From a virus (lineage: Duplodnaviria > Caudoviricetes): a stretch of DNA of 64,000 bases. The stretch lies in IMG/VR virus record IMGVR_UViG_3300028833_000074, positions 32,001 to 96,000 of that record. One strand, given 5' to 3'. The notes beneath the pieces were generated by a model that was not told the DNA's origin, ran no database searches, and was given only the letters and a program-made list of their open reading frames with translations. A program made the translations under genes and the position numbers. Positions 20,776-58,797 of this stretch are shown here, one piece after another (position 1 is the first letter of the stretch; every line of letters begins with the position of its first letter).

Positions 20776-21885
20776 GTGGATACTATGAAATCAACATTAA
20801 TTAAACAAGAAGCAAAAGAAATACAAGCATTCATTGAAAAAAACAAAGAATTGCCAAAAATCTGTACCATTAATGGTAATGAATACAGCATCTACAGCAC
20901 TTCTTACTTGATTGCAAAATTGCTTGACACCAAACAAAGTGACATCAAGCCGATAACTGTATCAGCACCATCAACAACAATCACGACAAAAATCAATGAA
21001 CAAGTCACATCCCCAGATTATAAGGATATGATTAAAAGATTTGTCCAATATGTTGAAGCCAACAAAAAGGTGCCGGCATACGTCACTACAGTCAAAAGCA
21101 AAACAAAAGTTGAATACAAATTATTTGTATATTGCATGTGTAAGATAATCAATTTTTACTATAAGAATTCTAATACCTTGCCATTGTATTGTGTATTTAA
21201 TGATGCGGATTTTAAAAAATCTGCAACCACTACAAAAACTACACAAAAAACAACAAAGACATCTACATCAGCAACAAAAAAAACAACAACAAAATCAAAA
21301 TGTAGCAACCCATACACATCATCACCACATTACACCTCAAATGGCTGTAATAAATTAGGACAATGCACCGGATGGTGGTGCGGTCCTCATTCCATTCACC
21401 AAGCAATACGCAAATTCGGTATCACAAAATATACCGAAAAACAAATTGCTGGATGGGCTGGTACCACAACTGCCGGAACTGGACATTCTGGCTTGAACAC
21501 AGCAATTGCAAAAATATCAAACATGAGCGGTAAAAAATTATCTGTACAATGGAAAAATTTCTCCGATATGGGTGCGAACAGCGCAGAACGTTTTGCTAAT
21601 ATCGCTAAATTAATTTGTAAAGACGATGTTGCAATTATCTGGCATATTGCATATATCAATGGGGGTAACAGTACAAGCGGCAAACACTTTGGACACTATG
21701 AATGCATTGACAAAATCAATACAGCAACCAAGTATGTAAGAGCGCTTAACTCATTAGGCGACAAAAAATCTGATGGCAGTTATGCTGGAAAACTACAAGA
21801 CAGACCATATGATGTTCAAGGATACTTTGCACGCAATACGCCAGGCGGACAGCCAGCATTATGTATCATTAAGGTGATAAAATGA
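20776..21885 (+). CDS. Pseudomurein endolysin (binding repeats + C39-like cysteine peptidase, PeiR-like); start probably ATG 20785
   Basis: N-terminal repeats (FIEKNKELPK, YVEANKKVPAYV), K/T linker, catalytic-type GQ..WCGPHS, GHY and LNSL motifs. Confidence 0.8.
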   Translation: MDTMKSTLIKQEAKEIQAFIEKNKELPKICTINGNEYSIYSTSYLIAKLLDTKQSDIKPITVSAPSTTITTKINEQVTSPDYKDMIKRFVQYVEANKKVPAYVTTVKSKTKVEYKLFVYCMCKIINFYYKNSNTLPLYCVFNDADFKKSATTTKTTQKTTKTSTSATKKTTTKSKCSNPYTSSPHYTSNGCNKLGQCTGWWCGPHSIHQAIRKFGITKYTEKQIAGWAGTTTAGTGHSGLNTAIAKISNMSGKKLSVQWKNFSDMGANSAERFANIAKLICKDDVAIIWHIAYINGGNSTSGKHFGHYECIDKINTATKYVRALNSLGDKKSDGSYAGKLQDRPYDVQGYFARNTPGGQPALCIIKVIK

Positions 21886-37776: not shown

Positions 37777-37785
37777 GTGAATATT

Positions 37786-40700
37786 ATGCCATCTTATTAT
37801 AATCGTGTCAAAGGCACATTGGAAGTTGCCAAATTGGCACAATCTTCAGACATACATTTAATTCAATCAAGCATACAAGATGCTATTTCAAGTTTAATCG
37901 TTGATATGTTTGGACCGGCATATATATTAGGACAACAAGAAGATGACTTAAAACTTGTACCTACAGCGATTCACGTTGACCAATCTAATACATATTATGA
38001 CAATGAACAACAATGGATTTCTTGTTATGAACGATACTTACGTCAAAATATTAGCATTAATAAATCTTCAATTGAAAGTATTAAAGTACATATGAAAAAT
38101 GATTCAAACTTAACTATCCCAGTTTATGCTGAAATTAGGGATATTAATTTTGATTTTATTCAAGAATCAAACGCTATTTTAAATCCAACCGACGAAGATG
38201 GATATCAAGAAGTAGAATTTAATTTTAACTTACATCATTTAGGCGTTGGTCATTATTATTTTGTCATCAAACCTATTGATATTTCAACCGCCGACTTAAT
38301 CGTAAATGGTGACGAAACCGAATACGATAACATTAATGAAGATACATTCCTTATCAGATATGATAGGGGTGGAAATTATCGTGAAGGATTAGAAGCATCA
38401 TATAATGGGGTTGATTATCTTAATGCATATTTATTAGAAGACCAACTTGAAAGTGATGATGATTTTAACATAGTATTACACGAAAATAATTTTGATTTAT
38501 ATTTTGAACAAGTTTTTAGTTCCGGTAACACATATTTGATTACACCGGGCGCAGCAGTTGTACATGGACAAAAGGTTTACCCTATCGATACTCACGTTAC
38601 TATTGATGGTCCTTCTCCATTAGGCGATAGAACCGACCTTGTAACCTTATCACAAGAAGGTATTTTAAATGTGATTAAAGGTAAAGTATATACTGGTAGT
38701 TTGGAAAATAATCGCCCAAAAAGTGATAATGGTTTAAAGATTGCATACATTACAACCTTTAAAAATGGTGTATCACAATGGAGATGCCCTATATGTGGTA
38801 ATATTAATGATGGTAATATTAAAAAATGTTTAAAATGTAATGAGGGTGAATTATCCATATCCAACAAAATTCCACTTGTTGAACAAAATGATGATAATTA
38901 TATCACCAGACAAAGAGATGTATTAGAACGCCTACGTCGTTTAGAGAAAAAAATTGACTATCAAAGCGAATATAATTCTCCAACAAGAATTAAATATATT
39001 TGTACTACCGACCCTATTCTTACAGAAAATACAAGTACAAATTACCAAGGTGATGGAACATATGGTATGACAACCATTAAAAATTCTGATGGACAATCTA
39101 TTACCATACCACAAACAGATACAAATATCATACAATTAGCATGGTCTATTATCAAAAGAACATATACACGTTCATACATCGATAGTTATACAACAACATA
39201 CTCAACAAACAAAAAAACAGTTACAACAAAATATATTTTAGACGCAATGGATGTGGCTATACCATATAAAAAGCCAAAGAAAATGACGTCTGCTGATTAT
39301 TATATTCTTAATTTTGTATATAAAGACGAGTATGTTAATAGCACAAAAACATCATCTAAAACAGTTAATAATACTTTAAAAACCACAGAAACTACAACTA
39401 CTCGTAATAAAGGTGTCAGTAAGGTAGACATAAAACTTACATTAAAATATGGTAAAAAAGTGGTTTATGAAAATACGCATACAACAACAAATAGTGGTCA
39501 AATTAAAATTGATATCTATAAGACTTTTAACTTTTTAAAAGCCGGCGAATATACAATGACCGCTACATATACAGATGCTAACAAAACTAAACATAAAATT
39601 ACAAGTAAAATCACAATATATTCTGGTAGTTTTACATCTAAACTAAAGGAAAACAAACAAACTTTTAGCGTTAAACAAGTTGTTGAAACACAAACAGCAA
39701 ATGGAAAAACACCAAATTATAAGGATATCACATATGATATACCAGATGATATTATTGCCGGCAATGATTCATTTTATCTTGATGGAGTGTCAGTCGATAC
39801 AGACAATGGTAAGGTTTATATTGATAAGGTAAGCAATCCAAATGAAAAATATATCGTAAATACACCATTGGAAAAAAGCAAGCAATACACATCACAAGAA
39901 ATTACTTATCAAATAAGCAATAATACAAAATCATTAAACAGTCAATATCCAGTATTAAATCTTGTATTTGAAAAAGATACATTTGTACATAGTTTGACAC
40001 CATATATTAACACGTTTAAAAATATGAAAAACTTTGGTATCATTTTATTCCGCAATGATGAAGTTTTTAATTTAACTCAATCTAAACGTATTTCTTACCA
40101 AAAGAAACTTGAAAACGACCCAGTCTTTGAAAATGTTTATTCAAGTACCTTAATTAATATTGCACCAATTTCAACATCTAAAAATGGTAAACGTGTATTG
40201 AAAGAATATCATAAATTTATTGTAGACAAACAAATCCCAGAAGGTACATACTCATTGCTTGTTTATGGACAATTAGAATCTAATCAAAGTGAAGGTGCTA
40301 TTTATATTAATGAATATGAAACCATGAGACAAATTGATAAATATGGTACATCTACAAAATGTTTAGGTTCATGTAATCCTTCTGTTATCTATTTAGAAAG
40401 CAATAATGTCTCAAGCAGAAGTTGGGATTTAGTTATTGAACAACAAAATGATAAATACAAAGATAGTGGTATCTTAATTTCCAAACCATATTCAGTCGGA
40501 GCCAACATCAAAAGTTGTACAATAGATAAAAATACAAATATACCAAATGGATGTAGTTTATCTATTCAAGTATCTAACGATGGTGGAAGTAATTGGATTA
40601 CAATGGATAGCGAACATATTACTTTTCCGGGTTTAGGAACTAAATTTGCTTGGAAATTAATTTTAAAAGGTAATGGTGAATATTCACCAGAATTACTCTT

Positions 40701-42771
40701 TGATGAAACCAAAAAATATGCTATCAATTTTAACATTGCTACTGAAGAATATTACGTTGCTTATGAAGATTATCAAAGATGTTTAGAAACACCTTTAATT
40801 GATGCTAATTATGTCACACGTTTATTATTAAGCGATTATACACTTCAAAATCGTTTTAGCGAATGGGAATTTGCAAGAATCTTTATGGAAGACCCAGATA
40901 AAACAAGTAAAATTGATATCTTAACATCAAACTCAAGTACAAGTAATGTTCCAGCAACACAAAAAAAAGATAACTGGGATAGAAGCATTTTCTTCAATCA
41001 AATATTTGCAGATTTAACGCTTGATGACTTTAAACATACCTCTGTTGATTACAATAATTACGATGGCAATCTTGAATATGACGAGCATAATTATCGTTTT
41101 AAATATGAAACCGATAATAATTACAATTATCAAGCCGGTGAAGTAATTGCGACAGCAAATGACGCATTAAAATTTACTAATTACGACAATATTGATACAA
41201 GTAATTTTACTGTAGACAATCATTTAAATGATACTTATGCATATTATGGCAACGATGATGAAGGCAGTATTCATACTGGTATGCATATTGAAACAGCCCC
41301 ACACTATGGAAATAAATATATGCCGGATAACCCAAATAATGATACTATTTATTATAATTCAGCAGAAGATGCAACTTACGACCCACAAATGATTATTGCT
41401 GGTGTCGTATTTGATAATGGTTTTGATATTACCGATAACTATACCGGATTAAATATAGATATTATACCATATATTTATGGTAAAGATAGACCACAAAATG
41501 AAAATGGACAAAATATCTTACCAGCCGGTACACTTGAAATTGTTGTATCACTTAATGAATATGGATTAGTTGAAGATAGCACAGCAACATATGGAAAAGC
41601 ATACACAATTGATGTAGACCTTGTAAGTGGCGAACATAATAATATCTCTGTACCTAATATATATGATGATTTTTATGGATATCAAGATGTACGCTGTATA
41701 GGTATTAGAGTAAAAGATATTACACCAACCTTTGAAGATGACAACCATGTAACAAAAGAAATTACTACAACAATCAGAAATGATGGTACAAATGGTGACA
41801 GTATATGTATTGGTAATATCGTTTTAAGTGGATATAACGTCAGACACTATTTCCCAACTGATTCATATAAATGGGTTAGGGGAGAAGTTGATGGTGGTGT
41901 CACAAAAGATAGCGCATCAATACAAAATCAACAATCTTGTGCATATATTGAGTATGCTATCGGTACCAATAGTGCTGGAAATTACGCATCTTATCGATAT
42001 GGAAGATATTTATTGGATTCAACTGCAACCCCTTCAATTAGTAATACATTAAATAGTCAAGCCATTAAAATTTTCAATAAAAATAATACTTTTGTAACAA
42101 CTACATCTACAAACAATGCCAATAAGGCTGTACTATCCAATAAAAAAATTACAACCACTATTAATAACCAAGAATATACAAGTAGTTTATTAAGTTACCC
42201 TAATATGCTATTTAAATTTACTAATGCAGAAACCGGATATCTATTTTATATAGACACAGACTTCTCTTTAAGCCCATATGACCTCATTGATGTTAGATAT
42301 TATATGGATACAGAACAAGTTGAAGGTGGTAATGCATCTAATAATGGCGCTACCAATATCAATACTTGGGGTGGAAACACATGGCAAACAAATGGTCAAT
42401 TTAAAACCGGTGATATTATTATTGAGTTTTATGATAACAGAGACCATTTGAATACCGAGCCTATTGAAAGTTTCCCATTGCCAGCATGGGGTCAAGTGCA
42501 AACAAGAGCGCAACAAACTAATAAAGTTGTATCAGCATGGTTTAAAAAACGTAATGGTGGAAGAGTTAAACGTATTGTTTTGAGAAGAAATAATCCAACA
42601 CATGATGAACTTTATGATATACATTTACATATCGAAAGTATTCGTATGTTTAATTCAAAAACAATGCCAGCATTAGGACCACAACTACAAATGAGAATCT
42701 ATCCAAACAACATTGATAATTTAACTAATACAAAAATTAGAAAATTTGGTGTTGTTTATAGATTGGCATAG
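37786..42771 (+). CDS. Large baseplate/tail protein (DUF4815-like) with a RanBP2-type zinc finger
   Basis: AGGTGA RBS; PGAAVVHG..RTDLVTL..G and DVLERLRRLE..Y motifs; WRCPICGNINDGNIKKCLKC. Confidence 0.6.
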   Translation: MPSYYNRVKGTLEVAKLAQSSDIHLIQSSIQDAISSLIVDMFGPAYILGQQEDDLKLVPTAIHVDQSNTYYDNEQQWISCYERYLRQNISINKSSIESIKVHMKNDSNLTIPVYAEIRDINFDFIQESNAILNPTDEDGYQEVEFNFNLHHLGVGHYYFVIKPIDISTADLIVNGDETEYDNINEDTFLIRYDRGGNYREGLEASYNGVDYLNAYLLEDQLESDDDFNIVLHENNFDLYFEQVFSSGNTYLITPGAAVVHGQKVYPIDTHVTIDGPSPLGDRTDLVTLSQEGILNVIKGKVYTGSLENNRPKSDNGLKIAYITTFKNGVSQWRCPICGNINDGNIKKCLKCNEGELSISNKIPLVEQNDDNYITRQRDVLERLRRLEKKIDYQSEYNSPTRIKYICTTDPILTENTSTNYQGDGTYGMTTIKNSDGQSITIPQTDTNIIQLAWSIIKRTYTRSYIDSYTTTYSTNKKTVTTKYILDAMDVAIPYKKPKKMTSADYYILNFVYKDEYVNSTKTSSKTVNNTLKTTETTTTRNKGVSKVDIKLTLKYGKKVVYENTHTTTNSGQIKIDIYKTFNFLKAGEYTMTATYTDANKTKHKITSKITIYSGSFTSKLKENKQTFSVKQVVETQTANGKTPNYKDITYDIPDDIIAGNDSFYLDGVSVDTDNGKVYIDKVSNPNEKYIVNTPLEKSKQYTSQEITYQISNNTKSLNSQYPVLNLVFEKDTFVHSLTPYINTFKNMKNFGIILFRNDEVFNLTQSKRISYQKKLENDPVFENVYSSTLINIAPISTSKNGKRVLKEYHKFIVDKQIPEGTYSLLVYGQLESNQSEGAIYINEYETMRQIDKYGTSTKCLGSCNPSVIYLESNNVSSRSWDLVIEQQNDKYKDSGILISKPYSVGANIKSCTIDKNTNIPNGCSLSIQVSNDGGSNWITMDSEHITFPGLGTKFAWKLILKGNGEYSPELLFDETKKYAINFNIATEEYYVAYEDYQRCLETPLIDANYVTRLLLSDYTLQNRFSEWEFARIFMEDPDKTSKIDILTSNSSTSNVPATQKKDNWDRSIFFNQIFADLTLDDFKHTSVDYNNYDGNLEYDEHNYRFKYETDNNYNYQAGEVIATANDALKFTNYDNIDTSNFTVDNHLNDTYAYYGNDDEGSIHTGMHIETAPHYGNKYMPDNPNNDTIYYNSAEDATYDPQMIIAGVVFDNGFDITDNYTGLNIDIIPYIYGKDRPQNENGQNILPAGTLEIVVSLNEYGLVEDSTATYGKAYTIDVDLVSGEHNNISVPNIYDDFYGYQDVRCIGIRVKDITPTFEDDNHVTKEITTTIRNDGTNGDSICIGNIVLSGYNVRHYFPTDSYKWVRGEVDGGVTKDSASIQNQQSCAYIEYAIGTNSAGNYASYRYGRYLLDSTATPSISNTLNSQAIKIFNKNNTFVTTTSTNNANKAVLSNKKITTTINNQEYTSSLLSYPNMLFKFTNAETGYLFYIDTDFSLSPYDLIDVRYYMDTEQVEGGNASNNGATNINTWGGNTWQTNGQFKTGDIIIEFYDNRDHLNTEPIESFPLPAWGQVQTRAQQTNKVVSAWFKKRNGGRVKRIVLRRNNPTHDELYDIHLHIESIRMFNSKTMPALGPQLQMRIYPNNIDNLTNTKIRKFGVVYRLA

Positions 42772-47711: not shown

Positions 47712-48362
47712 TCATATTCCATATACACCAACATTTAAACATAATTTGGTAAACATAATATCAAGTTCACTAATTTTTTTTTCAGAAATTTTACTTACAC
47801 GAATTATTTCTAATTTATTCATAATGTTATCTATATACACTTGTAATTTTATAATATAATTATCATCATCTTGCGTTAAATTCATTTCATCATCAATAAT
47901 TTTATAAATCTTATCAAAACTTTTAATTTCTACAAGCGTATTTTCAATTTCCTTATATTGAAAATCATTTGCACGTAATGATAAAATCATATTTTGTAAT
48001 TGACCAATGAATTTTTCAATAGGGGGATTGTCTATCACAAAAGAAATTATCTCATTAAACTCTTCGTTATCAGATGTAGCATTAATTAATAAATTATAAC
48101 ATGATGGTGAACCAATATTATAAATATAATATAAAATCACACCAAGTTCAATAAATATTACTTGATGTCCATCTATTTCCATTGTGATATCAGACTCTGG
48201 TTGCTTTACAAAAGATAAATAATTATTTAGCGAATTAATAAAAATACCATAAATATTATTATATTGCGTATAGCAACTTAAAACAACTACTTGCTTGTTA
48301 TCTTCAAAAGAATCAGCAATTAAACGTAATGTTTTATCATCAATAGGTTTATCTTCATTCAT
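47712..48362 (-). CDS. Hypothetical protein, possibly a degenerate nucleotidyltransferase-fold protein
   Basis: YGIFI...YLSF...EL...GSP..LL resembles YcgL/RlaP-type NTases but GS and DxD are missing. Confidence 0.35.
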   Translation of the reverse strand: MNEDKPIDDKTLRLIADSFEDNKQVVVLSCYTQYNNIYGIFINSLNNYLSFVKQPESDITMEIDGHQVIFIELGVILYYIYNIGSPSCYNLLINATSDNEEFNEIISFVIDNPPIEKFIGQLQNMILSLRANDFQYKEIENTLVEIKSFDKIYKIIDDEMNLTQDDDNYIIKLQVYIDNIMNKLEIIRVSKISEKKISELDIMFTKLCLNVGVYGI

Positions 48363-48864
48363 TATAATCCCCATCGTATTTTGTATCCACTCCTTGCGCT
48401 TGTAAATCAACTAATTGTGCAAATCTTGCACCTTTTTCAATGCAAAAATCTGTATTACGATGATTGATAATCAAAAAACTTAAATGTCCATCGAAACCAG
48501 CATCACCTAATGCTGTTTGTACAGACACGCCAGCACGCAACAAAGAAGAACGTGGCAAATAAAATTGCGCAGAGTCTGGAGCAATTTTAATTTTTTCTTT
48601 AGTAACCGCAATATAAGGTGTATTTGGTTGTAATGTATATACTTGCCTTAAACTACCTTTGACTTGTACAGTATTTGTATTAACATCGGTTTGTTGAGGT
48701 AAAACTTTAATATCTTTAAATAAACCATATATATGCATATTTGTATCTTCTATTGTTTTAATACAATCTAAAGTTAAATCAATACCAGTAGGTTGATATT
48801 GTTTATCATCCAGTCCATTATAACGTTCTCTTAAAATTAATTCACCATTAATCACTTGAATCAC
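48355..48864 (-). CDS. Trimeric dUTPase / dCTP deaminase family protein
   Basis: QPTGIDL, PRSSLLRAG, DAGFDG, GARFAQL, YDG.Y motifs. Confidence 0.9.
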   Translation of the reverse strand: MIQVINGELILRERYNGLDDKQYQPTGIDLTLDCIKTIEDTNMHIYGLFKDIKVLPQQTDVNTNTVQVKGSLRQVYTLQPNTPYIAVTKEKIKIAPDSAQFYLPRSSLLRAGVSVQTALGDAGFDGHLSFLIINHRNTDFCIEKGARFAQLVDLQAQGVDTKYDGDYNE

Positions 48865-49060
48865 CTAATTTTAATATTTTTCCTTGAGAAATATCCATAA
48901 AAATTTCAGTAGGTAATATTTCTCTCACTTCATAATTTTGTTTTATTGCTTTATCAATATCATCAACACTAATAATACCTATAAACTCATCATGTTCATA
49001 GATTAACAAAAAATTTTTCCACAACTCCCATACACTAATTCCTAATAAATCTTTATACAT
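48848..49060 (-). CDS. Hypothetical protein
   Basis: GGAGG RBS, coupled to both neighbours. Confidence 0.55.
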   Translation of the reverse strand: MYKDLLGISVWELWKNFLLIYEHDEFIGIISVDDIDKAIKQNYEVREILPTEIFMDISQGKILKLGDSSD

Positions 49061-49712
49061 TTTCTTCCTCCGCAACACGTTTGAAATTTGCGTAAACATC
49101 TTTAGCAAACACAATTGATGTTTTCTTTAAGGCCATCAAATGTAATCTTTTCTTATTATATGTTGGATTTTTATATTTATATTGCGTTTTATAATAACGA
49201 TATAATTCTGCAAACTCATCATCGTTTGCAATTAATTTACTCGTACATCGTATGATTGCTTTTTTTAAATCTTCACAGTAATCAATAGGGTCTTGTTTTT
49301 TATTGGCAACAATCTGCCCCCTACTGTATTTCTTAATTTTAGAATAATAATTTTTATTTCTTACAACTGGAGATAAACCAGCATATGATAAAAAATGCTT
49401 ACGATTTTGAAAACGCTGAATGTCACCTATCTCGACAATAAGTTCGGCAGCATCATATAAATTAATATAAGGTACTTTGCGTAAAAAACTCATATATTCT
49501 TCTGAAAAAAATAAAATATTTTGTATTTCATCTCTTAACATTTGCAAAGGACTATCAAAAGGTAATATACTAATATTTTCAAGCCTATTATATCTTGATG
49601 ATGATATATCACCAAAACTTATTAAACGATGTTTATTACTCTTTTGTGCATTAAAAACAGTTTTATTCGTGTTAAATAATATTGATAAAACTTTACGCTC
49701 ACTTGAATCCAT
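49053..49712 (-). CDS. IS110/Nop-domain protein lacking the RuvC domain (TasA-like)
   Basis: VPYINLYDAAELIVEIGDIQRFQNRKHFLSYAGLSP matches the IS116/IS110/IS902 (Transposase_20) motif; C-terminal LY..YK..Y...HLMALKK; no DEDD domain and no catalytic SG loop. Confidence 0.75.
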   Translation of the reverse strand: MDSSERKVLSILFNTNKTVFNAQKSNKHRLISFGDISSSRYNRLENISILPFDSPLQMLRDEIQNILFFSEEYMSFLRKVPYINLYDAAELIVEIGDIQRFQNRKHFLSYAGLSPVVRNKNYYSKIKKYSRGQIVANKKQDPIDYCEDLKKAIIRCTSKLIANDDEFAELYRYYKTQYKYKNPTYNKKRLHLMALKKTSIVFAKDVYANFKRVAEEENV

Positions 49713-49716
49713 TGTT

Positions 49717-50343
49717 TCACATCCTTAAAATATTATTTTTGGCTTTTTTAGATAAACGTGGTATTTTATCTAATTCATCTTCAGTTGCTGTTAATACTTT
49801 GCTTGGTTTTTTAAAATTTTTCAATAATGTGCGAGCAGTTTGTTTTCCTACACCATCAATACCAATTAAAACATTAATAAAAGCATTGGAATCTTTTTTT
49901 CTTACAATAGGATATTCTAATGGTTCTGTAGATTTATCAATATTATTAATAATTGATGAAATGCAAGAAACAAATTGTTTAAAGTTACTTGCAACAAATA
50001 CTGGGGTTTTATAACGAATCATCAACGACGCAATATTTCCAAATTTTTCATTATTTGTTTGTTGTGTCACATATTGTTCGTTCATTTTAAAATCATCATA
50101 AATAATAATAAATGAAAAAGGCGTTAATTCTTTCATTTGCAAAGCCTCTTTCTGAATTTGTCTATTTCGACAAGATGTGATAAAATCTTGAATTGTTTTC
50201 GTCTCAATTAATATATCTTTTTTACCTTCTTGTAAAATTGCAATATCACCAGAAATTAAACGTTCTACTTTCAAATCTGGAAAATAATTACGTAATTTTG
50301 CAATACGTTCATCATCTTCTCTATCATCAACAAGAATATGCAT
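49717..50343 (-). CDS. ERCC4/XPF (Hef-like) structure-specific nuclease with HhH
   Basis: VDDRE, GDI, IETKT..DF and IDGVG..TA HhH motifs. Confidence 0.9.
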   Translation of the reverse strand: MHILVDDREDDERIAKLRNYFPDLKVERLISGDIAILQEGKKDILIETKTIQDFITSCRNRQIQKEALQMKELTPFSFIIIYDDFKMNEQYVTQQTNNEKFGNIASLMIRYKTPVFVASNFKQFVSCISSIINNIDKSTEPLEYPIVRKKDSNAFINVLIGIDGVGKQTARTLLKNFKKPSKVLTATEDELDKIPRLSKKAKNNILRM

Positions 50344-50351
50344 ATAATCAC

Positions 50352-51281
50352 CTATAAATATAAATTAGCGCCACAACAATCAGATGAATTACAAATACCA
50401 TTACACTTTTGTGATTCACAACTTGAAAACAATATATCTTCTCTACCAAATAGATAGGAAACTTGATGTTCTTCTTCTACACAATGTTGAAATTTTTCAT
50501 CAGATAAATGATTTCGCAAAATCTCAACAACTTCTTCTTCAGTATATCCATCATCACGTAAATATATAATTAATTCACGACGCTCATGATATCCTAAATT
50601 TGCATTAGATAGAAGATAATCAATACAAGGTGGAAACTTGGCACTAAAATGAATATCATTCAATATAACTTCGTGTTTAGTTGTGATAATATCTTCATCC
50701 AATGGCAACAAAGAAACATAATCTTGACCGATAATATAATCGGCATGTCCATTGTATGATTTTGCCATTTGACAAATGTCTTCGTAAGATAATTCACATA
50801 ATTGATGATATTCAATTGGTATGCAATATAAACCAGTTTTTAAATTTTTAGTGCCAAGTATACGAGAAACTCTACGAGTATCTCCAACAACAGATGGGTC
50901 CGAATATGTGTTGGTTCTCCGATGTAAATTTTTTACCCACTTTTTTATCGCCAATTTAGGTTGTTTTAATTGTTCGTTATGAGTTAAAATAAAAATATGA
51001 AAGCCTCGACCACTAAAACGAATATAAAATTTTACACCCAAATCGTAAAGATAAAACGCAACCTTACGTACATCATCATAGAACTTTAAATCTGTATCAT
51101 AATCAAAATCAAGAAAAATTTTATCAATATAAGCATTTGGTGCTATTGGTTCTCCAACATAAGAATATACAGATTGATAAATATTTTTTTTTCCATTATA
51201 TAATGCAATAAATTTATCAATATCAGCATCATCTGTAATTGTTATTCTTATTTTGGGAATAAAAATTTCTTTAACCATCAT
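50352..51281 (-). CDS. Archaeo-eukaryotic primase, PriS fused to a PriL-like C-terminal domain
   Basis: FLDFD, FSGRGFH, D..V.DTRRVSR motifs; C-terminal FPPCI..HERR..SC...C..C. Confidence 0.85.
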   Translation of the reverse strand: MMVKEIFIPKIRITITDDADIDKFIALYNGKKNIYQSVYSYVGEPIAPNAYIDKIFLDFDYDTDLKFYDDVRKVAFYLYDLGVKFYIRFSGRGFHIFILTHNEQLKQPKLAIKKWVKNLHRRTNTYSDPSVVGDTRRVSRILGTKNLKTGLYCIPIEYHQLCELSYEDICQMAKSYNGHADYIIGQDYVSLLPLDEDIITTKHEVILNDIHFSAKFPPCIDYLLSNANLGYHERRELIIYLRDDGYTEEEVVEILRNHLSDEKFQHCVEEEHQVSYLFGREDILFSSCESQKCNGICNSSDCCGANLYL

Positions 51282-51667
51282 TCTAACATCTCGATATAAT
51301 GTTCAAATTCATTGTCTAAAACCATTTCGGCTAATTTAATCGCAAATTGACATCCGGGGTCAAGCATTAGGCCACTATTATAATCAATCACATAAAATGG
51401 CCATTCGGTACATGCATCGAATCTCGTTTCATATTCATTACATGTTTTACCATTAAAATATTGACAATCAATTGTGCGACAACAATCACCACATTGCTTA
51501 CAAAATTCTGGATGTTCTTGCACCATATTATATGTGAAATAAGAATCTGGTGCTTGTAATAAAACTGTTTCAATAATATCTGCTACCATTTCATCCCCTA
51601 TATTAGGATATTTAAGTGTGTATTTGTCTAACATTTTTTTTATAAATTTTAAATGATTAATAGGCAT
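51278..51667 (-). CDS. YkgJ-family CxxCxxCC metal-cluster protein
   Basis: CKQCGDCC, CQYF, C..YETR..C..WPF. Confidence 0.85.
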   Translation of the reverse strand: MPINHLKFIKKMLDKYTLKYPNIGDEMVADIIETVLLQAPDSYFTYNMVQEHPEFCKQCGDCCRTIDCQYFNGKTCNEYETRFDACTEWPFYVIDYNSGLMLDPGCQFAIKLAEMVLDNEFEHYIEMLE

Positions 51668-52383
51668 TAAAAACCACCTTCTTCTTCACACACTTCTTTA
51701 TAAGCACAATAATCACATAAGAATTGCCTTTCTGCATAAAAATTTTCTTCTTTAATTTCTTCTCGAATAAAGTTTAATAATTCAATAGTGGCTTCTTCAT
51801 CTGCATGCGTAACAAAAGAACCCTTCTCTTGTGATTCGCAAAAATTAACGAATTTCATGCCACCATCTTTAGTGAATACAATGCCAGCAGATATAACCTT
51901 TTTGTTAGGAAATTCTTTTTCAACTAATAATTTATAATAAGTCAATTCTAACCGATAATTTTTAATAGGTTTACTTTTACCGGTTTTATAATCAATAATG
52001 ATTAAATCGCCAAACTCATCTTCTAAAATTAAATCACATAATCCAGAAAAATTAATATCTTCATTATATAAATATTCCTCTGCACTAAATACTGTATATG
52101 TTTCTTTTTCATCATGAAAAACTTCATCATAAAAACGTGCTAAATTAAATAAATGTGTTTTAAGATTAAATTTAGAACCACTTTCATTATATATTTTTAT
52201 TAATTGTTCATAAAAATCTCCATCTATATCGATATTTTTAATAAATGTTTCCGCAATATTATGTACATCAGTACCTAATTGCATAAATTCATTAGGTTGT
52301 TGTTTAAGTTTATCTATATACATATATTTAAATTCTCTACGACATTTTAAAAAACTATTGACAGCACTTTTACTTAACTTCAT
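51667..52383 (-). CDS. PD-(D/E)XK Cas4/RecB-like exonuclease
   Basis: S.S....CRR, GTDVH, G.CDLI, IIDYKTG, CDYCAYKEVC. Confidence 0.9.
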   Translation of the reverse strand: MKLSKSAVNSFLKCRREFKYMYIDKLKQQPNEFMQLGTDVHNIAETFIKNIDIDGDFYEQLIKIYNESGSKFNLKTHLFNLARFYDEVFHDEKETYTVFSAEEYLYNEDINFSGLCDLILEDEFGDLIIIDYKTGKSKPIKNYRLELTYYKLLVEKEFPNKKVISAGIVFTKDGGMKFVNFCESQEKGSFVTHADEEATIELLNFIREEIKEENFYAERQFLCDYCAYKEVCEEEGGF

Positions 52384-52838
52384 AATATCTCTCCCTCTTC
52401 ATCAATTAATTCCCATACAATCTCTGCCGATATCCAATCTTCAAAATAACCTAAATTAATATAATGACTATGATAATACAATCTAAAAGGTTTATTGCGC
52501 TTTTGATTGATATGACTAATGTATTTAATTTTAGATGTATCCCATAAATCATATTTACGCAAGCCACCATCAGAATTATACTGATAATCACCACCCTTGG
52601 TAAAATTATATTCTGGTGAATATAAATCAATATAATATCGTTCTTTGTCATTCAATTCCGAAACAGCACATTCACATTCAACACGTAATTGATATCGAAT
52701 GGGGTCATCTTGTATTAATATATCAATTGGTTGACGCCCATGTGCATGATTTCTGTGTCTTTTATAAATATTACGACTTTGCCCAATATACAAAACCTTC
52801 ATTGTTTTTATATCAACATACGAATATATACCAATCAT
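52380..52838 (-). CDS. GIY-YIG homing-type endonuclease
   Basis: GIY..YIGQS..R..H, E..YI, YNFTKGG. Confidence 0.9.
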   Translation of the reverse strand: MIGIYSYVDIKTMKVLYIGQSRNIYKRHRNHAHGRQPIDILIQDDPIRYQLRVECECAVSELNDKERYYIDLYSPEYNFTKGGDYQYNSDGGLRKYDLWDTSKIKYISHINQKRNKPFRLYYHSHYINLGYFEDWISAEIVWELIDEEGEIL

Positions 52839-52872: not shown

Positions 52873-53592
52873 TTATATTCTTATTTGTCTAACATTATTT
52901 ATAAATGTTTCACTATCATTTGTTTGATACTCAACAAACATTCCAGTCATGATATCTCTTGGAATATCATTATAAGCATTTTGACAAGTAATATAATTTT
53001 TTACATTTTCTGGAGTACGCAATGACAAGCGTAAACATTTAGTACCCTTTTTAGATGTAAAATATGTTGCTTGTTTCACTAAAGCAATATCATTGTCGTA
53101 TTCATATGGATTGGCTTCGGTAATAGTTTCTTCAGCAATACCATTAATATAATTTGCTTCTAATACAAAACTATCATCTACACTAAAGTCAATCATGAAA
53201 TGCATATACAATCGCCCACCATATGAATGACAATTAATGATAATAACATGCCCAGTTTCAAAATATTTACCATAACGATGCACCAAAACCTCGCTACAAG
53301 AAACACTTTGATTTACATCCTTATTTTGAATATGCAAAATGGTGTATCCTTTTTTATTATCAACATCAATAATAATGCCCTTGACATATAACTCTTCTGT
53401 GTCATCTTCAATATCATTAAGGTCAGTAAGCAAATCATCATAAGGTGTTTCGATATTATCAATATATTCTTCCCTAATTGAAAAAGATAATGCAGAAAAT
53501 TCTTTAGCAAGAACATCTTTTTTAGAGTAATATTGATTTTCATTTTTAAAATAATTAATTAAGTCTGTCCTTTTTTTAATAATATCTTCCAT
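52873..53592 (-). CDS. OB-fold protein, probably the C-terminal part of the split DnaE
   Basis: KEFSALSFS (cf. EKE.LG.Y.S) then VKGIIIDVDNKKG OB strand; directly follows the polymerase core. Confidence 0.6.
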   Translation of the reverse strand: MEDIIKKRTDLINYFKNENQYYSKKDVLAKEFSALSFSIREEYIDNIETPYDDLLTDLNDIEDDTEELYVKGIIIDVDNKKGYTILHIQNKDVNQSVSCSEVLVHRYGKYFETGHVIIINCHSYGGRLYMHFMIDFSVDDSFVLEANYINGIAEETITEANPYEYDNDIALVKQATYFTSKKGTKCLRLSLRTPENVKNYITCQNAYNDIPRDIMTGMFVEYQTNDSETFINNVRQIRI

Positions 53593-53596
53593 AATA

Positions 53597-55387
53597 TCAC
53601 ATCAATGTTGTTTGTTTGTATTGATTTTCATGAACGATTGGGATATCATCAAAAGCACCAGCCCATATTAATGATTCTCTAACTCTTTTGTTACATGCAC
53701 GTGGAGCAATACGTAAACAAAAGTCTTCAAATGATAAAAATTTACCCTTTTTACGTTCTCGTAAGATTGCTTGAGATATTTTATTAGATACATTAGCAAC
53801 CAAATTTAAGCCCATATAAATTTTATTATCAGCAATAATTGTATTTGCTTCACTAATATTAATATTTGGTCCACATAATTCCGCATCACTTTCTTTTATC
53901 ATATTTAAAATCTCTACACGTTTTTCTTCTTCTTTAGTATTTTGGAGCATTGCAATTGCAAATTCCAAAGGATAATAAGTTTTCAACCATGCAGATTGAT
54001 AAGACACAGCAGAATATGAATAACAATGTGCTTTGTTGAAAGAATATTCAGAAGCATTTTCAATATCTGACCACAATTTCTCTGCCACTTCTTTTTGAAC
54101 ATTATTATCTATACAACCTTGTATAAATTTAGGTTTATATAAGTCAAAGGCTTCTTTTTTCTTTTTGGATACTGCTCTACGTAAATTATCTGTGTCAAGG
54201 TCAGACATACCGGCAAGTTGATTAGCCACTTGCATAATATTTTCTTGATATATCATAAGACCGAATGTATCACCAAGAATATCTTGTAAACGTGGGTCTG
54301 CATATGTAACTTCTTTCCTACCAAATTTATAATCACAATAAAGGTCTAAATAACCACTATTTCTTGCTCCGGGCCTAATAAGTGCAATAACATCCATTAA
54401 TTCGTTAAAATTATCTGGATGTATTTGCTTTGTACCAGATATACCAGCACCTTGTTCTAATTGAAAAATACCCATTGTATTACGATTGATTGTTTCAAAA
54501 ACTTTTGGGTCATCAAAATCATAAGGCAAATGAACATCATCATCAATTAATTCTAAAGTGTCCTTATGAATATCTAATACTGCCACACCAAGACAGTCAT
54601 TCTTTAGAAAACCCATCGCTTCACATTCACTACCATCATTAGAGATAACATCCTTACCAGTTACTGATATAGTTGAACAATAATTATCAATATCACCATC
54701 AAGAATTATCATACCACCGGCATGCACCCCATATGATTTAGTCAAACCGACAAGGTCATCAATATAATCTCTAACTTCAGTATGTTCATTTAAAAAATCC
54801 ATAACTTTAACATTATCATGATAATCTTCATTAGGTGCTAAATAAGATGTAACCTTGTTAACAACTTGAAAGTCAATACCTTGTCTTGCTGATAAATCCT
54901 TGATTAGCATTTTAGGTGTAAATTTTAATTTTGTTATCATTTGCCCAGTACATTCTTCACCATATATATCACGAATATATTGTAAGGCTTCATCTCTTTG
55001 TGATGAAGCAAAATCTGAATCTATATCCGGTAATGATGTCATTACTCTTGTTTTATTTAGAAAACGAGAAAATGATAATCCAAAGCCTTTGGGTGGAAGT
55101 TTAGTAATGTTTAATGCATAACAAACCACACTACCTACTGCAGAACCCCTACCGGCACTTCTAATAATACCTTTATCATCCAAGTAAGCAAGAATATAAG
55201 CAGTATTTAAAAAAAAGTTTTCCAAACCACAATCAAATATTACATTCAATTCATATTCTAATTGTGATTGGTACCATTCATCATCGCCAACACCTTTAAT
55301 GCGTAAACCACGTTGGCACATTTGTTTGATAAAATTTTTGTTATCTTCTTCAAAATCAAAAAAAGTTTGTTGCGCATCTCTTATCAT
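53597..55387 (-). CDS. dnaE: DNA polymerase III alpha (family C) catalytic core
   Basis: GRGSAVGS, PDIDSDF, HAGG, KNDCLG, GIFQLE, ALIRPG, YQE, YSFNKAH, AGAFD. Confidence 0.95.
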   Translation of the reverse strand: MIRDAQQTFFDFEEDNKNFIKQMCQRGLRIKGVGDDEWYQSQLEYELNVIFDCGLENFFLNTAYILAYLDDKGIIRSAGRGSAVGSVVCYALNITKLPPKGFGLSFSRFLNKTRVMTSLPDIDSDFASSQRDEALQYIRDIYGEECTGQMITKLKFTPKMLIKDLSARQGIDFQVVNKVTSYLAPNEDYHDNVKVMDFLNEHTEVRDYIDDLVGLTKSYGVHAGGMIILDGDIDNYCSTISVTGKDVISNDGSECEAMGFLKNDCLGVAVLDIHKDTLELIDDDVHLPYDFDDPKVFETINRNTMGIFQLEQGAGISGTKQIHPDNFNELMDVIALIRPGARNSGYLDLYCDYKFGRKEVTYADPRLQDILGDTFGLMIYQENIMQVANQLAGMSDLDTDNLRRAVSKKKKEAFDLYKPKFIQGCIDNNVQKEVAEKLWSDIENASEYSFNKAHCYSYSAVSYQSAWLKTYYPLEFAIAMLQNTKEEEKRVEILNMIKESDAELCGPNINISEANTIIADNKIYMGLNLVANVSNKISQAILRERKKGKFLSFEDFCLRIAPRACNKRVRESLIWAGAFDDIPIVHENQYKQTTLM

Positions 55388-55396
55388 ACTATCCCC

Positions 55397-56335
55397 CTAA
55401 TAAATTTTATTGCAAAATATTTTTTTAAATTTTTTATGTTGAGTAAAATTTGGAATAATTCTTTCATATTCTGGCATCTCAAAATAGCATTTTTCTGCAA
55501 TTTTATGTGTATTGTCAATGCAAGTTTGTATCAACTTGTCATCTTCTAATCCACTTTGATGCGCAAATTGATATGAATAGTCACTATTGCCTAAAATATT
55601 ACTAATTAATGTTTCGTTAATTTCGCTCTCTGGCTTTTTCCAATTGATAGATTGTATTTTCCTTCTTAATTTTCTGTCTTCATCCAATAGGACATGACTA
55701 TCAAAGGTATTAATAATGTATTTTGCATCTGTATCTTCATATAATTCTACCAATTTATTGTTTAAATAATTTTGAACCGGCAATCCAGTTTTATCATCAA
55801 TGTATGTTGGGTGATATTGCAATTCAACTGCAACATTGTCTTTTCCAAAGTAATCTAATAATTTATTGAAAAAATCATATGCTATATCATCTTTTTGATT
55901 TAAAAAGCATTGATTGATGTAAGAAAGTGAGCAAGCAGTTGATACAAAAATGCCTTCTGGATTGGTATTAAATAAAACTGGATGTGGCAATAAAGGTTTG
56001 TAATAAAAATGCTGTTTAACTGATAATCTTTGCATTTTTCTAATACTTTTAGCACCTCGCTCATTCATAGCCAACAAGACTAAATGATATCGTGTTTGAC
56101 CTTGTGGCTTACCCATCATAGTTTTACAATAAAATTCATTTCCAAACAATGGTTTAACATTGGTATCTTTACATGCTTCCTTTAGGGCATACCAATTCGC
56201 AAGACTACCATGGTCTGTAACTGCTACATATTCTTGCTCATAAATTTGAATTTGATTAATTAATTCTGGCACTTTAATGACAGAATCACCTACAGATGCA
56301 TCAGTATGTAAATGTAAATTTACGAAATTATCCAT
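55397..56335 (-). CDS. Stand-alone PHP domain of DNA polymerase III alpha
   Basis: HLHTD.S..D, TDHG, GNE, HLVLLA, TAC, ELQ.H, DSH metal ligands intact. Confidence 0.92.
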   Translation of the reverse strand: MDNFVNLHLHTDASVGDSVIKVPELINQIQIYEQEYVAVTDHGSLANWYALKEACKDTNVKPLFGNEFYCKTMMGKPQGQTRYHLVLLAMNERGAKSIRKMQRLSVKQHFYYKPLLPHPVLFNTNPEGIFVSTACSLSYINQCFLNQKDDIAYDFFNKLLDYFGKDNVAVELQYHPTYIDDKTGLPVQNYLNNKLVELYEDTDAKYIINTFDSHVLLDEDRKLRRKIQSINWKKPESEINETLISNILGNSDYSYQFAHQSGLEDDKLIQTCIDNTHKIAEKCYFEMPEYERIIPNFTQHKKFKKIFCNKIY

Positions 56336-56344
56336 ACTCTCACC

Positions 56345-56545
56345 TTAAAATTTGGCTATATCTTTAATCCCAAATAAAATATCTGGTTCCGGAAAATCAA
56401 TACAAGTAATTTCATTATTGATATCTCGATGAACTACAATGCCATATTTAGCAGTTTCAACTGTAACCGAATTTTTACTTGGGATTTTATATATAGACCA
56501 TATATCATTTGTTTGATTATATATAATATCGTACTTTTGCATCAT
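56345..56545 (-). CDS. Hypothetical protein
   Basis: 66 aa, coupled to neighbours. Confidence 0.55.
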   Translation of the reverse strand: MMQKYDIIYNQTNDIWSIYKIPSKNSVTVETAKYGIVVHRDINNEITCIDFPEPDILFGIKDIAKF

Positions 56546-57423
56546 TTTTTATTCCCTTTAGCATTTGCTTTTGGGAATATTAAATCATACACTTTATCAT
56601 ATTGTAAATCAATTGTTTCTTCTTTATTATTTGCGCTCATAAATACTTGTTTTTTACCAACAGAGAAGATATTAGACCTATCTTTTCTAATAGTTGCAAC
56701 ATAATCTTCTACATTAACATCTTCTACACTTGGTATTTTTTCGATTGTTAATCTCATAGAACATTCATCTATAAGTCTTTGTTTAACAGAAGATAAATCC
56801 TTACCTTGCTCTACAAGTTCTGGTATAAAATCAGAATGAGTTACATAAATGACCGGAGTATCAAGACTCATGAATGCTGAAGTACATTCTCTAAAAAATT
56901 TATTTCTAATTTTCCATACACTTAATTGTGCGCCTTGGTCAGCATCAAGATTCTTTTCTAATCTCATTCTTGCTTCAGCATATTCAAGTAAAAATGAAAC
57001 ACCATCAAGAATAACACCCTTAACATGAATATCTTGTTCTAATGCTTGTCTAACTGCTTCGGCTGCAGATGTAACATTATTAACAATAGTTTCTTCATCC
57101 TTAACAGTTGCACCTTTCTCATTTTCGGTAAAAGCATCTGGATTATATATTCTAATATTACCAGATTGATATTCATCTAAATAAAATGATTGAATGATTT
57201 CTTCACCGCTATTATCAACACTAATATAAACAATAATTTCATCATCCTTTAAATCATAAGTTAATAAATAAAGTGCTAAAGAAGTTTTACCAGTACCATT
57301 CTCACCACTTAATAATATTTTCTTATTAATTTTATCATTTATCTTTTGTTTTTTTGCATCAAAAATTTGTCCAAAAATCTCATCCTTCATTGATTCTTTT
57401 GGTTTACGTGTTTTCTCTCCCAT
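56542..57423 (-). CDS. AAA_24/Sak4-like P-loop ATPase (recombination/annealing)
   Basis: Walker A GENGTGKT, Walker B VILDG, YVTH. Confidence 0.75.
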   Translation of the reverse strand: MGEKTRKPKESMKDEIFGQIFDAKKQKINDKINKKILLSGENGTGKTSLALYLLTYDLKDDEIIVYISVDNSGEEIIQSFYLDEYQSGNIRIYNPDAFTENEKGATVKDEETIVNNVTSAAEAVRQALEQDIHVKGVILDGVSFLLEYAEARMRLEKNLDADQGAQLSVWKIRNKFFRECTSAFMSLDTPVIYVTHSDFIPELVEQGKDLSSVKQRLIDECSMRLTIEKIPSVEDVNVEDYVATIRKDRSNIFSVGKKQVFMSANNKEETIDLQYDKVYDLIFPKANAKGNKK

Positions 57424-57424
57424 A

Positions 57425-57628
57425 TTACGAATTCCCATAGTTTTCCACCTCTTTCATTAATTTTAATAGTCTTGTTTCTTTCTGTTCTATAATAGTTTTA
57501 AGTTTAATTTTCACAAAGATATCTGAAATGTTATTATAATCTTGCACCAGAATCTTGATATCATTAGTCAGAGTTGTCATCTGTCTGTGCAACTCTTGTG
57601 AATAAGGACTTTCGCTCAACATAATCAT
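57425..57628 (-). CDS. Hypothetical coiled-coil protein
   Basis: Short ORF packed in the operon; start uncertain. Confidence 0.45.
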   Translation of the reverse strand: MIMLSESPYSQELHRQMTTLTNDIKILVQDYNNISDIFVKIKLKTIIEQKETRLLKLMKEVENYGNS

Positions 57629-57788
57629 CTGTAATTGTATTCAGTTCATCAATAATAATCCCCTTTGTAATGATATGTCTCGCTACGACTAAATCATTTT
57701 CAAGAATTTGAATTCGAGAACGCACTTCTCGAGTGCGTATCTCAAATAAAGTATAAGGGTTTGATAAATCTTCTGGGGTATATCCCAT
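57564..57788 (-). CDS. Hypothetical coiled-coil protein
   Basis: TAATG coupling to the upstream gene. Confidence 0.55.
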   Translation of the reverse strand: MGYTPEDLSNPYTLFEIRTREVRSRIQILENDLVVARHIITKGIIIDELNTITDDYVERKSLFTRVAQTDDNSD

Positions 57789-58747
57789 TATAAATCATCC
57801 TCAATTGGTAAAAATCCACCACAATTGTACCTTAAAGTACCATCTCTACGTGGTGTAACATTCATAAATAAGATACCATCAATACCATCGGTAATGTTTA
57901 ATCCAGCAAAAGATGTTGGATGCACCCATACGATAAAGTCATCATCTTCTGTTTCAAAGTTGATTGAGATATCTCTTGTTGGGTCTTCATTAGGGAAGAT
58001 ATCCATACAAGTTGCTCTAACACCAATAAAAGCGTTTTTATCGTATTTTTTATCTTCAAGGTATTTTAATCCATCAATCATACTGTCAAATATGATATCT
58101 CCAAAGAATTGTTCAACATATCCAAGATAAATTTTAACTGCATCTTCATCATATGCATCTACATCTTCAAGAACAGTTGCCCCATTGAAATAAAGAATGT
58201 TTGCGTTTTTAACAAGTTGACCAGATTTTTTACCTTCTTTAAAAGTAAATTTGGATTCTTTACAAACCGGTAATACTTTGTCCATTGCATAACTACCGAT
58301 TGATACATCTCTTGCGACAATACCTTCATCGGTTTGGAAGATACCTACAGCACTACCATAAATTGCTTTCTTATCAATGACTTCACCTTTACTAAATCCT
58401 TGGGTATGAATATATTCGCCTTGTTCATTAGCCATACCCTTTTTGATAGCATTTTCAAGACCATTTTCCTTGACATATCTGTCTACTTGGTTCCAAGCAT
58501 AAAGATTGTATTCTTGGTCTGGGAATCTCATGATAATGAAACCATCCATTCTTTGACCAGATTGCACTAATCTTCTTAAACTACCACGTGTTTTTCTCAA
58601 AGAACGAATTATTTTCTTGTTTTCATCCATGTCTTCTGGCATACCTTCAAAAATTTCTTGATAGATTCTTTCCATTTCTGATTCATTTATACCATGTTTT
58701 TCCGCAAATTCTTGATTTTTTTGTTTCTCTGTGTCAATACTACTCAT
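57788..58747 (-). CDS. Putative ssDNA-binding (OB-fold) protein
   Basis: GGAGG RBS; first gene of the replication operon, near the Sak4-like ATPase; beta-rich C-terminal half, acidic end. Function inferred from context. Confidence 0.4.
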   Translation of the reverse strand: MSSIDTEKQKNQEFAEKHGINESEMERIYQEIFEGMPEDMDENKKIIRSLRKTRGSLRRLVQSGQRMDGFIIMRFPDQEYNLYAWNQVDRYVKENGLENAIKKGMANEQGEYIHTQGFSKGEVIDKKAIYGSAVGIFQTDEGIVARDVSIGSYAMDKVLPVCKESKFTFKEGKKSGQLVKNANILYFNGATVLEDVDAYDEDAVKIYLGYVEQFFGDIIFDSMIDGLKYLEDKKYDKNAFIGVRATCMDIFPNEDPTRDISINFETEDDDFIVWVHPTSFAGLNITDGIDGILFMNVTPRRDGTLRYNCGGFLPIEDDL

Positions 58748-58797
58748 AAATTTTACCTCCTTTAAAATTGATTGACATATTAATATATCCACTTAAT

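Follow-up and report, generated by a model that had tools for sequence, protein, structure and literature searches.

A DnaE-type DNA polymerase divided among three genes in a tailed virus, most likely of a pseudomurein-walled methanogen

Introduction

Family C DNA polymerases are a hallmark of bacterial replication, and two surveys, from 2011 and 2016, reported them only from bacteriophages (PMC3201878, PMC4889955). Here we analyze a locus in the tailed-virus (Caudoviricetes) record IMGVR_UViG_3300028833_000074 of IMG/VR, which is 152,284 bp long and rated complete by CheckV. The DNA that we analyzed, called the window below, is a stretch of 64,000 nucleotides (bases 32001-96000 of the record); all coordinates refer to the window unless stated otherwise. 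At 52873-56335 on its minus strand, a DnaE-type family C polymerase is divided among three consecutive genes that encode a PHP protein, a catalytic core, and a C-terminal piece with oligonucleotide-binding (OB) folds. We conclude that these genes probably make up one functional DnaE of a ~152-kb tailed virus, the host of which is most likely a pseudomurein-walled methanogen (Methanobacteriales).

In the single-chain DnaE proteins that we compared (Taq, Escherichia coli Pol III alpha, Mycobacterium tuberculosis DnaE1, and the enzymes of Streptomyces, Bacillus, and Brevibacillus phages), one polypeptide of 1000-1200 amino acids (aa) carries, in order, the PHP domain, the palm, thumb and fingers, a helix-hairpin-helix (HhH) domain, and an OB fold. 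The phages Sundance (1126 aa) and Thrax5 (1032 aa) are examples, and the DnaE genes of cultured bacteriophages that we examined are single genes. The window has the same domain order, the same catalytic aspartate triad, and the same nine PHP ligands, but in three polypeptides. An intact PHP site goes with intrinsic proofreading in the DnaE of M. tuberculosis and Thermus, where the PHP domain supplies the 3'-5' proofreading activity. The E. coli Pol III core consists of alpha, epsilon, and theta, and its proofreader is a DnaQ-fold protein that sits on a degenerate PHP domain; the window follows the same logic of a separate proofreading subunit, except that the PHP domain itself is detached. In Cyanobacteria, DnaE is likewise encoded in separate genes, and a split intein joins DnaE-n and DnaE-c into one chain. 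The pieces in the window have no intein and are broken at domain boundaries, so their reassembly must be non-covalent.

The closest described system is that of Methanobacterium virus PhiF1 (MK994522), an isolated Methanothermobacter virus whose GenBank record (2019) annotates two "DnaE superfamily" open reading frames (ORFs), ORF58 and ORF57. These belong to the same DnaE subfamily as the window genes and give the top identity in the phage database (36.7% for the core, 28% for PHP). As in the window, PHP lies on a separate ORF upstream of the core. PhiF1 differs from the window in three respects: (i) a uracil-DNA glycosylase (UDG) domain, absent from the window, is fused to the front of PHP; (ii) the core has an insert of intein size (~350 residues, read from the sequence and alignment only) at its GRG motif, where the window has none; and (iii) the core and the C-terminal OB region form one protein of 1176 aa, whereas the window has a further break, which yields a third gene, and a conserved tail on its core. 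ORF58 and ORF57 (L001:5423-10217) overlap by 80 nt in different frames, and in one metagenomic relative, P0056 (1271 aa), all parts are fused; one possible reading of the overlap is a frameshift in PhiF1, another a wrongly annotated ORF57 start.

A first-pass annotation of the window, made by a model from the sequence alone, had presented the split DnaE of an archaeal virus as a novelty. The division into three genes stands as such, but the PhiF1 record already documents an archaeal virus whose DnaE has its PHP detached. We found no description of DnaE in the literature on archaeal or methanogen viruses, where a mention in a methanogen-virus compendium paper is possible. What appears to be new is the break that yields the third gene, the size and conservation of the clade that carries it, the genes inserted at this break, and the conserved tail of the core.

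Results

Three adjacent genes encode the parts of a family C polymerase

The locus contains the following features.

55397..56335, minus strand: gene 1, a stand-alone PHP subunit of 312 aa and candidate 3'-5' exonuclease (proofreader), identified by Pfam, PHROG, and metal-ligand alignment.
53597..55387, minus strand: gene 2, the DnaE catalytic core of 596 aa, with palm, thumb, fingers, and HhH domain, identified by Pfam and phmmer.
53600..53647, minus strand: C-terminal tail of the core (residues 581-596, ending in QTTLM), a candidate clamp-binding peptide (PIP-like or beta-motif-like), identified by conservation.
52873..53592, minus strand: gene 3, the DnaE C-terminal subunit of 239 aa, with N-terminal helices and two OB-like barrels, identified by model, fold, and family profile.

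Rather than a single polypeptide, the locus holds three ORFs, each with its own start and stop, separated by 9 nt (PHP and core) and 4 nt (core and C-terminal gene). The first-pass annotation had read it in this way, and the ORFs together with the gene order of relatives (see below) bear it out. The annotation had also assigned a ribosome-binding site to each gene; Shine-Dalgarno-like sequences are present upstream of gene 1 (AGGTGA) and gene 2 (GGGGGA), while the site of gene 3 is weaker. A scan for sigma-70 promoters did no better than on shuffled sequence (55 versus 49). The G+C content of the window is 26-33%.

A Pfam search for intein and HINT families gave no match in any of the three proteins, in line with the earlier reading, and so the intein halves that flank the break in a split-intein DnaE are missing here. 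Pfam does find inteins in the relatives P0062 and P0071, and a precomputed Pfam domain marks one in P0167, which means that the method can see inteins in this DnaE subfamily. Genes 1 and 2 cover positions 42-339 and 334-938, respectively, of PHROG 405 (DNA polymerase, 1190 positions). This coverage is continuous, and the first cut thus costs no sequence.

Gene 2 matches the Pfam families DNA_pol3_alpha (PF07733, 4e-50), DNA_pol3_finger (PF17657, 7e-40), and HHH_6 (PF14579, 3e-20), and by phmmer it matches residues 387-945 of Taq Pol III alpha at 1e-86. It has a Pol-beta-like palm whose three catalytic aspartates, D121, D123, and D264, align with the PDIDTDF and KMD motifs of Taq; the fingers and then the HhH duplex-binding domain follow. 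Gene 2 carries a complete family C active site and is predicted to be active as a polymerase, which agrees with the original call of a DnaE-type enzyme with intact catalytic aspartates. Gene 1 matches the Pfam PHP family (PF02811, 6e-28). The N-terminal PHP domain of family C polymerases is therefore present with its metal-binding residues, though on a separate gene: all nine ligands (H8, H10, D17, H42, E67, H84, C135, D212, and H214) have aligned counterparts in Taq Pol III alpha and Geobacillus kaustophilus PolC, as the first reading had held.

Gene 3 had no match in Pfam, in PHROG, or by tblastn against 50,697 phage records, and its identity derives only from its own family profile and fold. 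Among 5.8 billion proteins we found 31 stand-alone homologues (190-258 aa, down to 43% identity, on contigs of up to 156 kb). An AlphaFold model built on the homologue alignment has three N-terminal helices and two beta-barrels, with a predicted local distance difference test (pLDDT) score of 88.6. Foldseek matched this model to tandem-OB proteins (HIN domains, Taq SSB, and RPA). The VIA fold search, which is independent of Foldseek, placed the OB domain of M. tuberculosis DnaE1 at the top (7pu7_A, residues 990-1099; Z 12.2, root-mean-square deviation 2.4 Å, 96 aligned), tied with other OB folds. Compared with bacterial DnaE C-termini, the piece contains one OB-like barrel more, and its sequence shows no detectable similarity to theirs.

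The link to DnaE comes from the gene 3 profile. Run against 1.84 billion representatives, it matched stand-alone proteins of ~240 aa and the extreme C-termini of longer proteins (1e-16 to 1e-27), which by Pfam are DnaE proteins with DNA_pol3_alpha, DNA_pol3_finger, and HHH_6 domains. The forms found were core plus C-terminal region without PHP (~800-817 aa), PHP plus core plus C-terminal region (1128 aa), the UDG-PHP-core-C-terminal fusion of P0056, and intein-bearing proteins. In L003, a relative with 60% identity, the core and the C-terminal region form a single protein of 830 aa that aligns straight across the break in the window. Because DnaE C-termini match the profile and L003 is continuous across the break, gene 3 is the detached C-terminal domain of this subfamily and a homologue of the DnaE C-terminal OB region. 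It supplies the OB fold that follows the HhH domain in family C polymerases; the model, the fold matches, and the profile all agree with its initial assignment as the OB-fold part of DnaE.

The three-part form is conserved across a large virus clade

We inspected ten related loci from independent assemblies. PHP is a separate gene in all ten and in PhiF1, and the C-terminal piece is a separate gene in all but L003. The order PHP, core, zero to three inserted genes, C-terminal gene, and PD-(D/E)XK nuclease onward is shared by L004, L007/8, L009/13, L011, L012, L014, L015, and L016. The core was further compared with its 120 closest listed clusters at 90% identity. Stand-alone cores make up 119 of these: 118 are 575-610 aa long and one carries an intein, the remaining cluster being a fused protein of 830 aa (with P0002 added, 119 of 121 are 575-610 aa). 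Many of the clusters come from contigs of 143-158 kb.

The junction DNA of the window is identical in two assemblies from other samples, L014 and L015. Together with the gene order in the ten loci, this clears up the concern, raised in the first-pass annotation, that the split might be an assembly error. Measured against L014 (dS 0.19-0.29), the ratio of nonsynonymous to synonymous substitution rates (dN/dS) is 0.032 for the PHP gene, 0.030 for the core gene, and 0.068 for the C-terminal gene. A large clade of virus contigs of ~145-158 kb retains the three-part form under strong purifying selection. Because the arrangement is common to more than 100 related virus sequences, we consider the split to be real, functional, and unusual.

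Modeling supports binding of the C-terminal piece to the core

A model of the core in complex with the C-terminal piece scored 0.64, whereas the best of three controls scored 0.00; the mark applied to such models is reached by 58 of 80 solved complexes and by 2 of 110 mismatched pairs. Separate runs share at least 95% of contacts, and the partners have pLDDT values of at least 86. In the modeled interface, core residues 487-585 (the HhH domain) face residues 4-39 and 75-94 of gene 3. The second break would thus lie inside a packed unit and not in a free linker. The claim that the breaks fall at domain linkers accordingly needs amending for this break, at which the N-terminal helices of gene 3 are modeled as packing on the HhH domain. 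The score may partly reflect likeness to solved single-chain DnaE structures, to which gene 3 has no detectable sequence similarity. The model supports binding of the C-terminal piece by the core. Assembly of the pieces had been predicted, with an AlphaFold-Multimer-type check suggested, and for these two pieces the prediction gains support from both the fused homologues and the complex model.

In relatives, inserted genes push the core and the C-terminal gene as much as 3.6 kb apart, and the virus has a separate RPA-like candidate single-stranded DNA-binding protein (SSB), so that OB functions may be distributed. Both observations would suit three functional proteins that form no stable heterotrimer, namely a minimal core polymerase, an independent PHP nuclease or phosphoesterase, and a free OB protein that binds single-stranded DNA or acts as an accessory factor. 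We think this unlikely, since the subfamily includes homologues in which all parts are fused, the modeled core and C-terminal piece share a large interface with a score far above that of the controls, and gene order is strictly conserved, with ATGA and TAATG stop/start overlaps that suggest coupled translation.

The host is most likely a pseudomurein-walled methanogen

Evidence on the host comes in part from a lysin gene.

20776..21885, plus strand: lysin of 369 aa with a pseudomurein-binding repeat (PF09373, PMBR; 1.6e-9, 37.8 bits against a cut-off of 24.9).

This lysin also has a weak match to the PHROG of a pseudomurein endoisopeptidase (phrog_37889, 1e-4), and the only phage-database match of its catalytic half is Caudoviricetes sp. 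vir080, whose recorded host is Methanobacteriales. The virus thus encodes a lysin with a pseudomurein-binding domain, as a Methanobacteriales virus would be expected to do. The catalytic half itself is C39-like or endoisopeptidase-like and differs from the canonical Peptidase_C71 of PeiW and PeiP. A second line of evidence is the replication module, which is colinear with that of PhiF1 through PHP, core, PD-(D/E)XK nuclease, primase of the archaeo-eukaryotic type (AEP), ERCC4 nuclease, Transposase_20-like protein, and NrdD.

We weighed these findings against a bacterial host, in which case the locus would hold a normal phage DnaE that happens to be split, and its "archaeal" features would be replication genes of archaeo-eukaryotic type, which are common in phages. 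AEP primases are indeed common in phages, the two surveys cited above know C-family polymerases only from bacteriophages, and most tblastn matches of the core are phages of Actinobacteria and Firmicutes, at ~33% identity. A Peptidase_C71 search of the virus genome found no match, but the control genomes were silent too, which makes that result uninformative. It also counts against an archaeal host that we infer it from the lysin domain and PhiF1 synteny. A bacterial host is nevertheless improbable in our judgment, because the PMBR match exceeds the Pfam cut-off and is joined by the endoisopeptidase PHROG match, the catalytic half of the lysin matches only a virus recorded from Methanobacteriales, and the whole module is colinear with PhiF1, to which the core (36.7% identity) and the primase (39%) are most similar.

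The virus therefore most likely infects a pseudomurein-walled methanogen of the Methanobacteriales, and the lysin and the PhiF1 synteny support the earlier view that it is an archaeal virus. Low G+C content and relatives from the ruminant gut suggest Methanobrevibacter or Methanosphaera as the host genus; the record names of related contigs (STEW19, XIEF21) stand for what we take to be ruminant-gut data sets.

Junction frames vary among relatives

In the window, PHP and core share a frame, with only TAG GGG GAT AGT between them (55388-55399, minus strand), and the same arrangement occurs in L014, L015, and L003. This is a point against three separate products, and stop read-through may take place in this one genome. 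Elsewhere the junction looks different. The PHP and core frames differ in six relatives, in which the genes overlap by 1-4 nt (ATGA and TAATG types) or are separated by 11 nt, and three different stop codons are in use. The core and the C-terminal gene do not share a frame in the window, and relatives have whole genes between them. Read-through or recoding as a general mechanism was rejected on account of the variation in frames and stop codons, and the overlapping stop/start junctions suggest coupled translation.

Despite the in-frame spacer, we hold it very improbable that the breaks are artefactual or bypassed, whether by assembly or sequencing error, decaying pseudogenes, or read-through or recoding into one protein, since independent samples have identical junctions, frames and stop codons vary as described, dN/dS values of 0.03-0.07 exclude decay, and long ORFs elsewhere in the virus genome read through under the standard code.

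The PHP break appears to predate the core/OB break

We built a quick short-search maximum-likelihood tree and rooted it on two Acidobacteria DnaE genes; a search of genome contigs with the polymerase had returned only DnaE genes of Acidobacteria metagenome-assembled genomes. The three-part forms are one clade (99% by the SH-like approximate likelihood ratio test, SH-aLRT), nested among forms with core plus C-terminal region, and fully fused forms lie in sister clades. Fully fused, two-part, and three-part versions of the same DnaE subfamily thus exist. The three-part clade also includes (92%) the fused L003 protein (6001-8493, 830 aa), which has no conserved core tail; its position suggests a secondary re-fusion of core and C-terminal piece. 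The break after PHP is common to PhiF1 and to relatives whose core protein has no PHP, and for this reason the quick rooted tree reads as placing it before the core/OB break. The latter would have arisen at the base of the ~150-kb clade.

The core/C-terminal break is also a hot spot of insertion, as relatives have zero to three extra genes there. Between the two genes lie an ORF of 60 aa in L009 (6822-7004), a small ORF and a cytosine methyltransferase in L004 (5310-7051), a small ORF and two methyltransferases in L007 (4342-7008), and two small ORFs and an intein-bearing methyltransferase in L012 (3389-6980). The inserted methyltransferases are cytosine-5 DNA methyltransferases. The small ORFs were considered as a single family and rejected as such, because L004 and L007 are the only pair whose small ORFs resemble each other. 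Next to gene 3, the window has a further candidate mobile gene.

52380..52838, minus strand: GIY-YIG protein of 152 aa, probable homing-type endonuclease (weak Pfam GIY-YIG match, 1e-3, below the curated cut-off).

GIY-YIG (PF01541) is found at the homologous position in L009/L013, elsewhere in L007, and not at all in L016. Such mobility is as expected for a homing endonuclease.

The core ends in a conserved tail that may bind a clamp

In stand-alone cores, a tail follows the AGAFD helix, and in the window it ends in QTTLM. Among the 121 sequences examined (P0002 and the 120 closest listed clusters), 106 end exactly in Q-x-x-[LFIM]-[IVMLC], and a few divergent cores have longer, PIP-box-like endings (QTTLGFF, VTLDDF, and VTLDSF). 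The conserved tail sits where E. coli Pol III alpha has its internal beta-clamp motif, 920-QADMF-924 (PMC3201878). Core residues 586-596 are not among the listed confident contacts of the modeled interface with the C-terminal piece. The tail is possibly a clamp-binding motif.

Searches of the virus genome with PCNA_N, DNA_pol3_beta, and DNA_pol3_beta_3 found no recognizable clamp, although a divergent one is possible. As no clamp gene is recognizable in the virus, PCNA of the host is the probable partner of the tail. Two ORFs were considered as clamps and rejected: the 334-aa ORF turned out to be RPA-like by fold (see below), and a 232-aa ORF (47712-48410) has no family match and no likeness to PhiF1 ORF52.

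These observations led us to a tentative idea, in which fission after the HhH domain freed the C-terminal peptide of the core, the family C polymerase hooks onto archaeal PCNA of the host with it, and the three-subunit architecture is an adaptation to this end. We regard the idea as possible but doubtful. Several points speak against a clamp role: fused homologues have no such tail, no other viral protein among the real genes ends in Q-x-x-L-h, and we infer the role from motif shape and conservation alone.

The polymerase lies in a mixed replication module

The following genes surround the polymerase.

51667..52383, minus strand: PD-(D/E)XK (Cas4-like) nuclease (PF12705, 9e-24); PhiF1 ORF56 is at the same position.
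50352..51281, minus strand: AEP-type primase of 309 aa with a PriL-like C-terminal part (PF04104, 8.5e-7; phrog_16345, primase).
49717..50343, minus strand: ERCC4-HhH nuclease of 208 aa (PF02732, 2e-9; HHH_5, 1e-7); PhiF1 ORF54 is at the same position.
56542..57438, minus strand: RecA/KaiC-like, Sak4-like ATPase (PF06745, 1e-7; phrog_124, Sak4-like, 3e-11).
57788..58792, minus strand: RPA-like multi-OB protein, candidate SSB, ORF of 334 aa (from the fold of the 319-aa form).

The primase is 39% identical to PhiF1 ORF55 (1e-65) and has visible DFD and FSGRGFH motifs. An NrdD gene is also among the neighbors of the module. The RPA-like ORF had no match in Pfam or PHROG and no informative cluster in an ESM Atlas search. 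Its relatives start 15 residues later (319 aa), and the model has a pLDDT of 91, with helices and several OB barrels; Foldseek places an archaeal RPA filament, Teb1 AB, and RPA70 at the top, and there is weak similarity to PhiF1 ORF61 (3e-4). On the basis of this model, we consider it the probable RPA-type SSB of the virus. The Pfam matches PF04104 and PF02732 and the PhiF1 homology confirm that an archaeal-type primase and an ERCC4 nuclease adjoin the polymerase. With a bacterial-type DnaE beside an AEP primase, an ERCC4-HhH nuclease, and an RPA-like protein, the replisome is of mixed bacterial and archaeal type, and the notion of a chimeric replisome holds.

A Transposase_20 protein (IS110 C-terminal; 49053-49712, minus strand) has no recognizable catalytic domain. 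Its position is shared by every relative and by PhiF1 (ORF53), and it seems to be a constant component of the replication module. A DUF5906 protein of 736 aa (superfamily 3, SF3/D5-type NTPase; L018:1993-4203, genome 117993-120203, minus strand) is encoded far from the module and could serve as the replicative helicase. Other genes include a choloylglycine hydrolase family protein that is bile-salt-hydrolase-like (PF02275, 2.5e-42; L017:13818-14702, genome 109818-110702, minus strand), three giant plus-strand proteins that look structural or adhesin-like (2720, 2433, and 1664 aa; 3-8165, 29914-37215, and 37777-42771; DUF11, TackOD1, and Ig-like matches), and a BspA-type leucine-rich repeat protein (18505-19308).

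Discussion

We propose that the three gene products are subunits of one functional DnaE-type replicative polymerase of family C that would reassemble non-covalently. According to the complex model, the N-terminal helices and the first OB barrel of gene 3 would pack against the HhH domain of the core. By analogy with single-chain DnaE, the PHP protein would dock on the palm, and by analogy with Mycobacterium and Thermus DnaE it may supply 3'-5' proofreading. The OB piece would hold the single-stranded template, and the free Q-x-x-L-[IVM] peptide of the core may recruit a sliding clamp, probably host PCNA. The polymerase would work beside the AEP primase, the RPA-like SSB, the SF3-like helicase candidate, and the ERCC4 and PD-(D/E)XK nucleases.

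Our analysis describes a large, previously undescribed clade of ~150-kb viruses, most likely of gut or rumen methanogens and thus relevant to enteric methane, that relies on a DnaE cut by evolution into PHP, core, and OB subunits. The fused, two-part, and three-part natural versions are a ready-made system for determining the contribution of each DnaE domain. The clade is well suited to two questions: (i) whether a detached PHP still proofreads, and (ii) how a bacterial-type polymerase gains processivity in an archaeal cell that has PCNA and not the beta clamp. If the proposal for the core tail is true, a PCNA-hooked DnaE would be a natural hybrid of two cellular replication systems that are otherwise separate.

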